From: a virus
Taxonomy: Duplodnaviria; Heunggongvirae; Uroviricota; Caudoviricetes
Virus record (IMG/VR): IMGVR_UViG_637000105_000002
DNA length: 62,656 nucleotides
Reading direction: 5' to 3' (one strand)
Within the stretch, counting starts at the first letter, position 1. Every line of letters starts with the position of its first letter. The position numbers are program-made. This document shows, in pieces, positions 57,001 to 62,656 of this stretch.

Positions 57001-60000
57001 CGGCGGCACGATGGGGTGAAGTCATGCAACTGGTGGAGACAGACAAGGAACGGCATCAGGTTACGATGCGACGGCTGGAATGTTCCAGGAAGGCACAGAG
57101 GCCACCGGAGCCGCCAACGGAGAACTATGCAGACCTGAGAAATGCAGTAAATCGCACTTACGCAGACATGGGGCTGAGCAAATTAGCAGAGTAGGAATAC
57201 CAGAACCACACCACACAGCCGGAGCAATCCGGCTTTTTTGCGCCCAAAAAAAGCCCGATAAGGTCAGAGGTGGCTTATCGGGCTTTTGCATATGAGGTTT
57301 TTTGGTGCACTGACACACATGATCGGGATAAACATTTCATAATTTGCAACGCAACTCAATATCATTGCTCAAAATGCAATCATGATTATAATCATAACTG
57401 GATGAACATCCAGTTATGATTTTTTAAGTCAAAGAGGAATTTCTTACTATGGCTGAAGAGAAAAAAGGCGGTGTTTCGGTGTACATAAGCCCCGACATCG
57501 TGAAGGCGCTCAAGGAACGCCACCAGCAGAACGTAAAAGCAGGCATTGCGGCAGGACTTGATCCGCTGGCGATGGTTGAGCCGTCAACAGGCTGGCAGGT
57601 ACGCGCCTATTTACGCGCGGCGCAGGGTATGAATCAGGTTCACGGGGGTGAATAATGACAGTAAAAGCAATGGCACTTAACACTAACCAGCTTTTTGCGT
57701 ACCTGAATCGCGGGGATATTGCGGAATTTAAATTCAGTCCGCTGTTTACCACGCTGTTTTTCCCGAACGTGGCGACATTCAGCACGCAAAACATCATGCT
57801 GGATACCCTGGACATTGAAGAAGTCACCATGTCGGCGTTTTGTTCGCCTATGGTGGGTAGCCAGGTTCAGCGCGATAAAGGGTACGAAACCAGCACGATT
57901 AAACCTGGCTACATGAAGCCAAAGCACGAAATCGATCCAACGAAAACCATCATGCGCATGGCTGGAGAAGATCCGGCACAGCTTAACGACCCTACCTATC
58001 GCCGTATGCGCCTGATTACTGGCAATATGCGCCGCCAGATAAACGCCATAAAAGCGCGCGTGGAATGGCTGGCGGTAAATGCGGTAACGACCGGAAAAAA
58101 CATCATTGAGGGCGAAGGCATAGAGCGCTATGAAATCGACTGGAAGATACCGGAAAAAAACATCATAGAGCAGGCCGACGGGAAAAAATGGTCAGAGCAG
58201 GACAAAGAAACCCACTATCCAATCTATGATATCGAACTATACGCCGATCAGGCTGGTTGCCCCGCAAACGTCATGATTATGGGCGCTGAGGTATGGCGAA
58301 CGTTACGCAGCTTTAAAAAATTCCGTGAGCTGTACGATCTTTCCCGTGGTTCAGAATCCGCCGCCGAACTGGCCTGTAAAAACCTGGGCGAAGTGGTGAG
58401 CTTTAAAGGCTATCTTGGTGATCTGGCCCTTATCGTCTATTCCGGCAAATACACTGACAGCGATGGTACCGAAAAATATTTCCTTGAGCCTGATTTGCTG
58501 GTCCTAGGTAACACCAACAATAAAGGGCTGGTGGCCTATGGTGCGATAATGGATCAGGAAGCGGTAAGAACGGGCGCAACACAAAACATGTTTTACCCGA
58601 AAAACTGGATTGAGGACGGAGATCCGGCGATTGAGTACGTGCAGACGCACAGCGCACCGCAGCCGGTTCCGGCAGATATTCGCAAATTTGTTACTGTCAA
58701 AATTGCTTAACGGGGGATTCTATGGACACTCCATACATTGAGTTATTTGCAGGCAGTCAGCAGGTCGCCACGACGCTGGTACATTTTGCCGCTGATGCTG
58801 GCGTTATTCAGGAATTTACCCCGCTGATGCTGGCGGACAATGGCGAGTTTAAGCCGTGGGATGGTAAGGAATCTGGCAAGGCTGTTTATCTGACCTCGTA
58901 CCCTGTGGACACGTCAAAGCAGAAATCAGCACAGTGTTACAAGACGGGGATATTCAATATTGCCGCCGTTAACTGGCCTGAGAGCGTCGACACCGATGCG
59001 AAAAAATGCGCCGCCTTTGCGGGTTCTGGCGTATCCGTTCAGCCGCTGGCCCGATAAGCAGGGGGAACGATGGCAACGAATGAAAGCATCATGACGCTAC
59101 CGCTGGCGAGTAAATTTAAAGCCGAAGCGCGGGCAATGGCTGACAGAGGTTTATCAACCTATGAGGCCGTATATCAACTAAACAAACTGGAAGAGCAGGA
59201 CAAGCCGCGCGCTGATGCGATTATGGCGCTTGATGAATCTGGCGACTATCAGCCGCTGTTACGTGCAATGGCAAACGTGCCTTGTATCGATGTTGGTACG
59301 GCTAAAAGCATCCTTAGCATGACCATAGAGCAGGAACGTCCGAAGGTTGCGCCGGAACTTACTGCAGCCTTTGAAAACTTTATGGACATGCACAGCCCGC
59401 AAGCCGTATCAGCTGGCATGGCATACGATGGCAGAAACCAGGGCGATGACGGCGACATCGATCGCATACTGAAAACCATCTGAGACAAGGCCGGAGAAAT
59501 CCGGCTTTTTTTATGGGTCCTTTCCGGCATATGGACCCGTTACGGGGCGGCGACCTCGCGGGTTTTCGCTATTTATGACGTTTTTCCGTGAAGGTGACAC
59601 CACCACCACTTGATTAATATTTAACCATGCAGTTAAGGTAACATTATGATTGATAAAGCTTGTTTTGTAAGTCAGCAGGAAATAGCTGAACATTTCAAGG
59701 TTAACAGAACCACTATTCGCGCATGGACCAAACAGGGGATGCCGTATCTTAATGCGGATCGCGGAAAGTCTGGCGGTTATCACATCGGGCATACATTGCT
59801 TTGGTCTTCAGGTAAAAGCCGTCTTGAGGCCATCAGATATCACGTAGAAACCAGTGCGCTGGAAAAAATTATGTTTGCCAGGCTGCTTTCATCTGAGCGT
59901 GACGAGTACTCCAGTGAAGAAACAGAACATCGATTTGATGAAGGTTTGCAGATTTACGGCTATTCACCGGAAGATGTGAGCAAGGCACGAAATAAAATGG

Positions 60001-62656
60001 CTGGCTTTCTGGCTGGGTGGCGTCATGCCGTAAGCGTTCGCCGTGCCAGCATGGAGCAATCAGCCGATACAGAACAGTAAAGCCGATAACTTGTTAATCA
60101 CTCGCAGCAATGCATGTGATTTGTGCACACTTTCGGTTAACTGGTTCGATGTCCGGTTTTAGTGTCTGTTTTTTGCGCATGTCCGGTTCATGGAAAGCAT
60201 GTTTTTATATTTTTCATATGGTTAACTTGCAGAGAAACCGGACATGGATCCCGAAAAATTTTCATAAATAGTGAAAACGCGCGAGGTCGCCGCCCCGTAA
60301 CGGGCCATAATTCCAGGAAGGACCCGACGACACCAGACTATCAGAACGATGGGGGCACAATGACAGAAGCCGAAATACTGCGATTAATCCGCCGCGTTGC
60401 CGGAATCAGCCAGCAGGCCGACGAACAGACCACGCAGCCGGACAGCGTGACCGCCGAAAATTATGTTCGTGTGGTTGCTGAGGTGATTCGCCGTAATGGT
60501 ATCCAGCTTAATGATGTGGATATGCGCAACATACGGATCCGCGTTCTTGAAATGCTGGCCTACAATCGCCGCGTGGCACTGTATCGGGAAACGGAGAAAA
60601 TTACGTACCACTGGAAGAAGCCGGAGCGGTTGCGGCGGTAACTGGTTGATATTTTCGAAATTCGCCAGCGGCGAACATCGGGGAAACCAGCCTAACCCGT
60701 TGATATTTTCGGGAACCTCAAATTGAAGAGGTCGGAAACATAACCCGTCATATTCTGGATGCTGATAATTACCACGCAGCCCATTAAGGCCTAACCCGTT
60801 GATTCTTCCACAATCCCCCATTGGGGGAGGCTGGGCGGCCTGCTGTGGGCTTTTCCACCATTGGTGGAAAGGCGCACATCTGGATCATCATTACGGTGAT
60901 CAAGGGTATGTAAAACCCACCAGCCTGATTGACATTTAACCGGAAAAAAGCCAGGTAGCCCCGTTATGGGGATCCCCATATCGACATTAACGCCCCTCAT
61001 GAATTGGCGCGCTTCCCCCTGGAAAGATGACCCGCCTGTATATTTCTTGTGTCTATTTGTTCCACGTTGTTTCATACAGTGCAACGATCGGTGTAGTTAA
61101 TGGTGTAGTCAATTTGCGATTTTTAGCACTTTTTGCAGTGCAAATCATTTAATTAAATCAATGGCTTGCCTTGATGTAGTGATAAAAGGACATATTTATT
61201 CATCTTTCGGTGCAGAATGCTGGCGACCAAAAATCACTTCCATCCGCGCACCGCCCAGCATGCTCTCTCCGGCGACGATTTTACCCTCATATTGCTCGGT
61301 GATTTCGCGGGCTACCGCCAGCCCCACACCTTGCCCAGGGCGTAAAGTATCAACCCGTTGACCACGGTCGAAAATGACCTCTCGCTTGCTTAATGGAATA
61401 CCGGGGCCATCATCCTCGACCACAATATAGAGATGCTCGTCGGTTTGCCTTGCAGAAATTTCGACAAATTCGAGGCAATATTTACAGGCATTATCCAGCA
61501 CATTACCCATCACCTCGACAAAATCGTTCTGCTCACCAACAAAGCTGATCTCTGGCGAAATATCGAGAGAGATATTGACCCCTTTGCGTTGATACACTTT
61601 GTTCAGCGCCGAGGTGAGATTGTCCAACAGTGGGGCGACCGGATGCAGCTCGCGGCTAAGCAATGTCCCGCCGCGCATACTGGCACGATGCAGGTAGTAC
61701 CCAATTTGCTGTGAAATGCGGCTGATTTGCTCCAGCATTACCGGCTCAGCATCACTGACGCTCATCTTCTCACTACGCAGAGAACGCAGCGTACTTTGCA
61801 GCACCGCCAGTGGCGTTTTCAGACTATGGGTCAGGTCGGTGAGCGTCGTACGATATTTGTCGTAACGTTCGCGTTCACTTTTTAACAGTCGGTTCAGGTT
61901 TCGTACCAGACTGGTCAGTTCTCGCGTTGTGGCTGGATTGAGCAATTCACGGTTATGTTCTTCCAGTTCGCGGACTTCTTTTGCCAGGGCTTCGATGGGG
62001 CGTAAACTCCACCAGGCGGCGACCCACAGCAGCGGGATCACTAACAGCAGATTGGCTGAGAGCACATAGATAAACCAGCTCCAGACCATATAGGAACTTT
62101 TTAGCTCCACCGGAATGGTATCCACCACCACAATGGTTAACTTTGGCATCCGCGATGTTGCCGGGTAGACGTTTACCGCCACCGAGTGGGTCATCTCCGC
62201 GTCGTCATCATCTTCCCGCACTTCCTGCAACTGTTGCTGTATCGAATGATCTCCACTCAGCAAGAGGCTGGTATCGTTAACATCCGCTTCAATTTCATGA
62301 AAACCATTCGATTTCAGCCAGTCAGGCTGGATCATCTTCATCAGCCAGGGCACGTCACGTTGCGCCCATAAAAGCTGCCCGTTCTCATCATAAATTAGTG
62401 TCATCGTGGGGCTTTGCTTGTCGATATTTTCGGGTAACTCGACATGCAACTTATTGTTTTCCCACTTCGCAAGGGTATAGAACAGATTGCTCTCGCCACG
62501 TAACAGCCGAAACGTGGTTTTATCGAAACTGACGCTATAACCGATCAGCGCAACCATTCCGTAGGCAAGCGAAAGCACCAATACTACTGCTGCCGTTGCT
62601 AACAGAAAACGTACCCGCAGCGAGAGCGGGAAAAAAAGATGCAGTAATTTTTTCAT

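Follow-up and report, generated by a model that had tools for sequence, protein, structure and literature searches.

Between positions 59480 and 60360 of the 62,656-nt stretch of DNA analyzed here (IMG/VR record IMGVR_UViG_637000105_000002; the whole stretch is termed "the window"), two lambda-type cos sites in opposite orientations, cos1 and cos2, flank the gene rppA. Its sequence identifies the region as the packaging module that EcCICFT073 carries in its native strain, Escherichia coli CFT073; this element is the prototype of Gram-negative cos-type phage-inducible chromosomal islands (PICIs). The cos1/RppA/cos2 cassette and its hijacking mechanism were published in 2018–2019; because the sequence is identical to that of the experimentally characterized island, the finding as such is already known, and the present analysis adds nothing on cos1 or RppA. 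What it does add concerns cos2. As judged by nucleotide comparison, cos2 copies the cosN-cosB region of a specific phage lineage that also has a representative 39 kb away in the same chromosome. This match to another lambdoid lineage is not reported in the literature searched and is hence new here.

We consider it very probable that the region as a whole is best explained as the EcCICFT073 module, in which RppA and the small terminase subunit (TerS) of a helper phage act at cos1, and in which cos2 may afford a second, Rpp-independent route. A fuller proposal is that the cassette is a two-key module shuffled by recombination: cos1 would answer to the Rpp or TerS encoded by the island itself, cos2 would present an exchangeable phage cosB that serves a second class of helpers, including those whose TerS is not bound by Rpp, and the shared cosQ-cosN core would be the crossover point at which cosB is swapped and the cassette flipped. 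We regard this fuller proposal as a serious possibility that falls somewhat short of probable. From the bare sequence, an initial annotation had arrived again at a mechanism that genetic and structural work had already solved in 2018–2019; its useful residue is cos2.

Identity of the island

Positions 1-47387 of the window align without gaps to the CFT073 chromosome (99.998% identity over 47 kb). The entire window corresponds to CFT073 1328014-1390669, such that a coordinate in NC_004431.1 equals 1328013 plus the window position, and the 881-bp cassette is 100% identical to NC_004431.1 1387493-1388373. The window comprises, in order, a lambdoid prophage (~1-44.8 kb, between potC and potB), potBA-pepT-roxA, an island of 11.2 kb, and phoQ. 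The island is bounded by 75-nt direct repeats on its attL side (49821-49895) and its attR side (61040-61114, adjoining phoQ); these are spaced by 11219 bp, and the integrase gene starts at 49896/49917. Family searches with the island's open reading frames identified the integrase (49896-51146), an AlpA-like protein (51512-51700), a D5_N primase (54228-55982), and SSB, PerC, Phage_cap_E, and HDPD proteins. The resulting order (int, alpA, pri/rep, capsid and decoration homologs, cos/rpp, with att sites of its own) is that of EcCICFT073-type islands, which measure ~11-15 kb and lack lysis and tail genes, and the gene order c1499-c1504 is present. The island is not of the capsid-forming type (cf-PICI): no portal, protease, or large terminase subunit (TerL) was found among its proteins, and the full set of head genes is absent.

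cos1 and RppA

The window contains three exact copies of the 12-mer cosN, GGGCGGCGACCT, where 0.01 would be expected from shuffled sequence: one in the prophage (20520-20531, plus strand) and two in the island (59545-59556, plus; 60284-60295, minus). The initial annotation had described the two island copies as oppositely oriented, each with its cosQ-side flank. Indeed, both are exact, and they form the arms of a 77-nt inverted repeat (59515-59591 and 60249-60325; 82% complementary) that takes in the cosQ core GGGTCCTT. The two copies are the published sites: the plus copy, which reads into the gene, is "CFT073 cos.1," and the reverse complement of the minus copy equals "CFT073 cos.2," both printed in Fig. 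S5 of the 2018 report (PMC6092414, Fillol-Salom 2018).

The cosQ of cos1 (59510-59527, plus; core GGGTCCTTTCC at 59515-59525) lies in the left arm of the inverted repeat and matches lambda cosQ (PMC6092414 Fig. S5). GGGTCC begins 30 nt before the exact cosN, as in a lambda-type cosQ/cosN. Past cosN, likeness to the prophage site is soon lost, in keeping with the ~22 nt originally noted: 22 nt are identical, similarity is recognizable to +36, and identity then falls to a background of 27–45%. Repeated R boxes (R3-I1-R2-R1) were not found in the 89 nt between the cosN of cos1 and rppA; this interval holds only the element ACCACCACC (59599-59607). A single Rpp-specific "R3-PICI" has been proposed at bp 48-65 of cos1 (59592-59609, plus), with bp 55-63, namely ACCACCACC, invariant; cos2 was not discussed there (Murialdo & Feiss 2022, PMC9026076). 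In its single R3 and lack of I1, R2, and R1, cos1 resembles the site of N15 (PMC9026076). We surveyed 80 related IMG/VR loci, collected via a homolog of c1501, and found ACCACCACC kept in every Rpp-bearing locus (19/19) and also in island P393-F10, both of whose cosN copies have another sequence. The ACCACCACC region of cos1 is the proposed recognition site of Rpp. Directly upstream of cos1, c1501 is followed by a hairpin resembling an intrinsic terminator (59487-59508, plus; a 9-bp stem and then a T run).

The gene between the two sites, rppA (c1503; 59646-60080, plus), encodes a protein of 144 residues with a TerS-like winged helix-turn-helix (HTH) at its N-terminus, and its DNA is 100% identical to CFT073 C_RS07025 (WP_000565609.1). 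The cassette had been taken at the outset for a packaging-hijack device with an Rpp-like factor; the gene proved to be rppA itself. In a phmmer comparison with the crystal structure of RppC (6hlk), residues 2-125 were aligned with an E value of 5e-31, and RppC 6hn7 was also matched; the length of RppA falls within the 139–154 residues of the Rpp family. The protein matches PHROG 57 (terminase small subunit) over residues 7-47 only, with PHROG and HTH Pfam coverage confined to ~6-47, and the family search of the window's proteins gave no match to Pfam Phage_Nu1 in RppA. These results agree with the earlier observation that the satellite's Nu1-like gene is shortened at its C-terminus. Also corroborated was the claim that its N-terminus is closer to that of lambda Nu1 than is the prophage's own: RppA matched structures of lambda TerS N-terminal fragments in the PDB (1-68 and 1-98) weakly, with E values of 0.08–0.2, whereas the prophage TerS gave no match to them at E ≤ 10.

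cos2 carries the cosB of a phage lineage

In cos2, all on the minus strand, the cosQ (GGGTCCTTCCTGG; 60314-60329) and cosN are followed by a cosB of phage type (60146-60283). Its R3 (60236-60246) is separated by an I1-like, AT-rich spacer from a pair of R boxes in the reverse orientation (60178-60188 and 60148-60158). The site thus has the makings of a lambda-type cos: cosQ, cosN, and oppositely oriented R boxes on either side of an AT-rich stretch. A search for the R-box motif CATGTCCGGTT, allowing at most one mismatch, returned seven sites in the 62.7-kb window where 1.07 were expected. All seven fall in the prophage cosB (four) or the cosB of the minus copy (three), and the R boxes stand at equal distances from cosN in the two sites (bp 50, 118, and 148).

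The prophage cos occupies 20490-20680 (plus; cosQ core at ~20490-20502), and the motif search placed its R boxes at 20569-20579 (+), 20627-20637 (-), 20657-20667 (-), and 20664-20674 (+). The stretch that the initial annotation had chosen for comparison, 20480-20720, does contain the prophage cosN, at 20520. Its statement that the minus-oriented copy is followed by a near copy (>80%) of the prophage cosB is borne out by an identity of 83% over 178 nt (60149-60326 vs. 20489-20666) and by the equally spaced CATGTCCGGTT boxes. The R boxes are nearer to consensus in cos2 than in the prophage.

Closer relatives of cos2 were found outside the window. Compared in register over bp 1-150, cos2 is 95.3% identical to the cos regions of PhiR12_1, UPEC129, and O104:H4 and 84.7% identical to that of the window prophage; for cosB only (bp 49-150), the corresponding values are 96% and 81%. 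PhiR12_1 is an isolated phage whose record gives K-12 as its host, and the UPEC129 and O104:H4 matches are prophages. A search of a phage collection matched cos2 to Escherichia phage PhiR12_1-5 (93% over 179 nt), and a search of E. coli genomes matched its cosB to prophages at up to 98%. The matching sites are ordinary lambdoid cos regions located just upstream of terS-terL. The likeness ends just past the last R box, identity over bp 151-200 being 14–20%. From these comparisons, we conclude that cos2 is not a duplicate of cos1: the two differ in the cosQ flank and in cosB, and the cosN-cosB of cos2 is 95% identical to a real phage cos. The cosQ flank of cos2 is itself 92–98% conserved among the cos2 sites of other islands, even where the island's cosB differs.

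The TerS of the window prophage (WP_000235436.1; 20715-21224, plus) links this lineage to the same chromosome: its amino-acid sequence is identical to those of TerS from PhiR12_1 and from the O104:H4 and UPEC129 prophages. It has a Nu1-type C-terminal part and a different N-terminal domain; Pfam Phage_Nu1 is matched through the C-terminal two-thirds only, and over the first ~50 residues no sequence alignment to lambda Nu1 is possible.

Published experiments and the function of cos2

Helper-dependent induction, replication, and transfer have been demonstrated for EcCICFT073, which is packaged in phage-sized heads (PMC6092414). The product of c1503 was identified as RppA, which binds the helper TerS, prevents the phage from being packaged, and promotes packaging that depends on cos1 (PMC6739421, Fillol-Salom 2019). 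The same study mapped lambda and phi80 escape mutants to TerS, found that single substitutions in lambda TerS suffice to abolish RppA binding, reported that TerS is bound by both RppA and RppC, and presented structures of RppC and of RppC-TerS(1-98) that show the TerS-like winged-HTH domain (PMC6739421). When cosB regions were swapped, RppA-dependent packaging was supported only by the cosB of cos1 (PMC6739421).

With respect to the two sites, a plasmid bearing either cos1 or cos2 is transducible by lambda and phi80; transfer of the island is strongly lowered (residual) upon deletion of cos1, higher upon deletion of cos2, and abolished by the double deletion (PMC6092414). It is lambda-mediated transfer that the removal of cos2 raises, and cos2 is dispensable for lambda and phi80 (PMC6092414, PMC6739421). 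These papers describe the island cosB as "completely divergent," in a comparison limited to lambda, phi80, and phi4 (PMC6092414, PMC6739421). Although they treat a sequence identical to ours, they report neither the match of cos2 to another lambdoid lineage nor a flipped cassette. The role of cos2 is left unexplained in the published papers found, even though its deletion aids lambda-mediated transfer.

The published experiments show that a lambdoid helper (lambda, phi80, or CFT073 prophage 4) induces the island through AlpA, whereupon the island excises and replicates. The heterodimer of RppA and helper TerS, formed by way of the TerS-like winged HTH, fails to recognize the phage cosB and turns to the cosB of cos1; the TerS part recruits TerL, cosN is cut, and island concatemers fill phage-sized heads. 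To this we add that cos2 may be a plug-in copy of the cosN-cosB of the lambdoid lineage with TerS WP_000235436 (PhiR12_1 and the CFT073 potC/potB prophage). A terminase of the WP_000235436 type should bind cos2 directly and package leftwards, independently of Rpp. For lambda and phi80, cos2 would be merely a competing, poorly recognized site, which would explain why its removal helps lambda transfer.

The opposite orientation of the two sites would have a consequence for the end of packaging. Termination in lambda requires that cosQ-cosN be met in the direction of translocation, and inverted sites could for this reason not end each other's packaging runs. Each run would end at a cos of its own kind, so that whole 11,219-bp units would be packaged and the rppA that lies between the sites would always be retained. 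A lambdoid head would be full with four such units (44.9 kb). Lateral transduction by PICIs was considered as a reason for the two directions and rejected: the relevant paper deals with pac-type islands of Staphylococcus aureus (SaPIs) and says that cos phages do not do so.

The initial annotation had envisaged a helper-recognizable cos paired with a specificity factor. The cassette stood, but not the pairing: RppA acts via cos1, which has no phage-like cosB, and the window prophage is not a demonstrated helper. An explanation in which this prophage is the helper, cos2 is the site that it recognizes, and the Nu1-like protein acts on that helper-type cos would account for the 83% identity of the two sites over 178 nt and their equal R-box spacing, and for the identity of the prophage TerS to that of phages whose cos is 95% like cos2. 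We nevertheless judge it very unlikely. The cosB swaps tied the promotion of packaging by RppA exclusively to the cosB of cos1 (PMC6739421). Deletion of CFT073 prophage #4 abolishes induction and transfer, whereas deletions of the other prophages are without effect (PMC6092414), and the helper, prophage 4 (phi4), is located at icd, outside the window (PMC10111431). The window prophage, moreover, carries an IS200 downstream of its Q gene.

This element, IS200C, lies at ~13545-14248 (tnpA at ~13687-14145), between the Q-type antiterminator gene and the tRNA/late region, and may explain the prophage's lack of helper activity in CFT073. The prophage of ZH063, otherwise 99.7–99.8% identical, is without IS200; its TerS differs by D60V.

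A second alternative is that cos2 serves mainly as a decoy, i.e., a high-copy, near-consensus phage cos that titrates or misdirects the terminase of that phage and is not a productive site. Its R boxes are nearer to consensus than those of the resident prophage, and with lambda the site is costly, given that its deletion increases transfer (PMC6092414). The cos2 plasmid is transducible, however, and the residual transfer seen without cos1 is lost in the double mutant (PMC6092414); it follows from these two results that cos2 supports complete packaging. A role chiefly as a decoy is thus rather unlikely in our estimation, although decoy and packaging roles are not mutually exclusive.

Several observations also weigh against the use of cos2 by a second class of helpers, the use that our proposal assigns to it. 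The resident prophage's cosB is only 81–85% identical to cos2. That prophage is not a sufficient helper, the deletion of prophages other than #4 being without effect on transfer and that of #4 abolishing it (PMC6092414), and it bears IS200 between its Q gene and its late genes. The argument from orientation and the four-unit packaging are proposals of ours, and the 2018 paper speaks of the skipping of two cos sites (PMC6092414). Finally, the collections searched yielded no phage counterpart for two cosB2 types of related islands, those with CAGATCC and with GGTTGTTGT. At the level of nucleotide identity, cos2 as a phage mimic is demonstrated for EcCICFT073 and not for all islands.

Exchange of cosB modules among related islands

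Both cos copies are present in ~55 of the 80 surveyed loci. The notion that the second cos might be shared with no other related island did not hold, as the inverted pair recurs in these loci and in many E. coli genomes. The type of cosB1 tracks the island's DNA-binding gene without exception (Rpp, 19/19; PICI TerS, 37/37). The cosB2, of which there are five or more types, varies independently of the Rpp/TerS gene: among Rpp islands, 11 have a cosB2 of the CATGTCCGG type and 8 one of the GGTTGTTGT type, and TerS islands have those of a phage-21-like type (9 + 2) or the CAGATCC type (12). In the islands of AVS0713 and 2011C_4037, a full TerS of 180 residues replaces rpp and the inverted pair is kept. 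In TUM9803, rpp is frameshifted and the cosN of cos1 is mutated, with cos2 intact. On this evidence, the cos cassette is built from exchangeable modules, comprising cosQ-cosN, cosB1 with its gene, and cosB2.

Such exchange could be thought to have left cos2 behind as a neutral scar, not selected for any function, of recombination between island and phage at their common cosQ-cosN core. The likeness of cos2 to phage cos starts near cosN and stops abruptly after cosB, cosB2 modules have clearly been swapped among islands, and rearranged derivatives without rpp exist, all of which a scar would explain. Yet the inverted pair persists in ~55 of 80 loci, across different integration sites, different replication modules, and even another cosN type. 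An intact cosN is no rarer in cos2 (48/55 copies exact) than in cos1 (63/76), the spacing of the R boxes is exactly kept, and cos2 works experimentally. We therefore find a functionless cos2 unlikely.

Two cosB2 types resisted assignment to a phage. The cosB2 of the O157-type island (R box CAGATCC) gave only weak matches in the phage collection; of 87 exact matches to the R3 15-mer of this type in IMG/VR, 83 were due to chance and the remainder all lay in PICI contigs. The GGTTGTTGT type had no phage match past +42. Megablast was unfit for counting co-resident prophages in each genome, as its 28-nt word misses matches of ~83% identity, including CFT073's own. A search for RppA in species-representative genomes gave no match under a single-protein setting that was too strict.

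Further variation was evident among these islands. The 180-residue TerS of sister islands (L003 and L004, 4290-4832 in both) resembles the prophage TerS in its C-terminal half, and the cosB upstream of it contains GGTGGTGG and CACCAAC/GTTGGTG repeats that are reminiscent of ACCACCACC in the opposite orientation. Several islands, among them the O157-type island of 2011C_4037, have a one-base change in the cosN of cos1 (GGGCGGAGACCT, GGGCGTCGACCT, or GGGCGACGACCT); the loci are L004 (position 4145), L006 (4066), L105, L133, L135, L139, L140, L142, L144, L166, and L167. Where cos2 could be read in these islands, its cosN was intact in most. Downstream of the c1501 homolog, the place of cosN is taken in four loci (L119, L120, L123, and L180) by GGGGCGGGAGCG, followed directly by a c1504-like gene; rpp/terS and a second cos were not detected in these four.

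Inversion of the cassette

Among natural isolates, the DNA between one cosN and the other is found either way round. In WP4-S17-ESBL-08 (NZ_AP022049.1; locus L181), a 751-bp rppA cassette is 100% identical but flipped, such that rppA is antisense to the capsid genes, and the same partial alignment was obtained for 14 further complete genomes, which are apparently flipped as well. A 536-bp cassette without rpp (IMG/VR loci L150-L165) is found in four loci in each orientation between identical flanks, the two forms being 99.3–99.6% identical once one is flipped. Junction searches in complete genomes counted 69 with c1501-cos-rppA and 31 with c1501-cos followed by the CATGTCCGG cosB; these are raw counts, in which clonal genomes may be included. 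The combination of a cos site, inversion, and a PICI was not found in the literature searched.

The two crossovers of the flipped cassette in WP4-S17-ESBL-08 differ in position: one is upstream of cosQ, and the second falls inside the cosN core. These positions suggest that recombination between the inverted cos repeats is the simplest cause of the flipping. A clean cut-and-flip by terminase at cosN was rejected, since a left junction upstream of cosQ is better explained by homologous recombination or gene conversion.

We also weighed whether the inverted pair is a programmed switch that flips rppA and swaps the two cosB regions, resulting in phase variation of packaging specificity. The two orientations between identical flanks, observed for both the 751-bp and the 536-bp cassettes, and the junction counts (69 vs. 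31) are what such a switch would produce. There is no invertase gene nearby, however; all 15 flipped rppA cassettes have the same sequence, and a single clone may account for them; the unequal crossover points fit ordinary recombination or gene conversion between the 77-bp inverted repeats; and orientation should not affect packaging from a circular or concatemeric substrate. A programmed switch accordingly seems to us highly improbable.

Comparison with known packaging systems

The cos sites of the island share with lambda the cosN 12-mer and the cosQ core, and the R boxes of cos2 flank an AT-rich spacer at lambda-like distances. The R box itself differs, being CGTTTCC in lambda and CATGTCCGG in cos2. 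RppA shares the winged-HTH fold of lambda gpNu1/TerS (published structure) but is without the C-terminal part that binds TerL. With respect to phage 21 (M81255), the cos2 of the AVS0713 island has R3, I1, R2, and R1 at that phage's annotated positions, with related box sequences. The cos2 of EcCICFT073 belongs to another specificity group (CATGTCCGG vs. CATGTCGG), and the CFT073 helper phi4 has a TerS of the 21 type.

The notion of copying a helper's cos has a precedent in PICI 11capE, a related island of E. coli, where a 258-bp, 90% identical stretch is reported to be common to the island and its helper prophage at the position of cos; that island lies inside its helper, and neither cosB anatomy nor a second cos was given (PMC10111431). 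Cos-type SaPIs (SaPIbov5; SaPIbov4) carry the helper's cos and no TerS, like EcCICFT073, and a parallel to the two putative cos sites of SaPIbov4 was drawn in the 2018 paper (PMC6092414). The SaPIs differ in being Gram-positive, unrelated in sequence, and devoid of Rpp, and SaPIbov5 forms small capsids through Ccm. Satellite P4 is comparable in its integrase, its primase-type replication protein, its possession of the cos of its helper (P2), and its dependence on the helper terminase; unlike EcCICFT073, it carries just one cos, with the same sequence as in the helper, forms small capsids through Sid, and has no TerS mimic.

These comparisons make the question of cos2 testable: the site is a near copy of the cos of an isolated phage lineage, and the TerS of that lineage is encoded in the same genome. 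If cos2 is indeed used by such helpers, two independent packaging keys would set the host and helper range of satellites in E. coli pathogens, and engineered PICI delivery vehicles could be retargeted simply by a swap of cosB2.

Other features of the island and prophage

On the cosQ side of cos2, the conserved neighbor is c1504 (60360-60641, plus), which encodes 93 residues and belongs to PHROG 1561, function not assigned. The head-type genes of the island (57655-59483) encode a lambda gpE-type major capsid protein of 351 residues and a gpD-type decoration protein of 111 residues. A 137-residue island protein is similar to head proteases in their C-terminal, scaffold portion (PHROG 53, E 1e-8). 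The literature records no phenotype for c1499/c1500, and the island's particles are of phage size (PMC6092414 for particle size).

A repeat shared by 23701-23725 and 59572-59596 (D11) was judged to be a chance match. A cosN look-alike with one mismatch, GGGCGGCGACCC, is located at 55370-55381, within the primase gene, and is also present in other islands (at position 37 of L003). Having no cosQ or cosB context, it is probably a coincidental coding sequence. In the prophage, the first tRNA (14291-14366) was called tRNA-Met (CAT) by ARAGORN and is annotated as tRNA-Ile in RefSeq. A tRNA-Ile at this place is the usual lysidine-modified, ileX-type tRNA of the lambdoid ile-arg-arg tRNA cluster.

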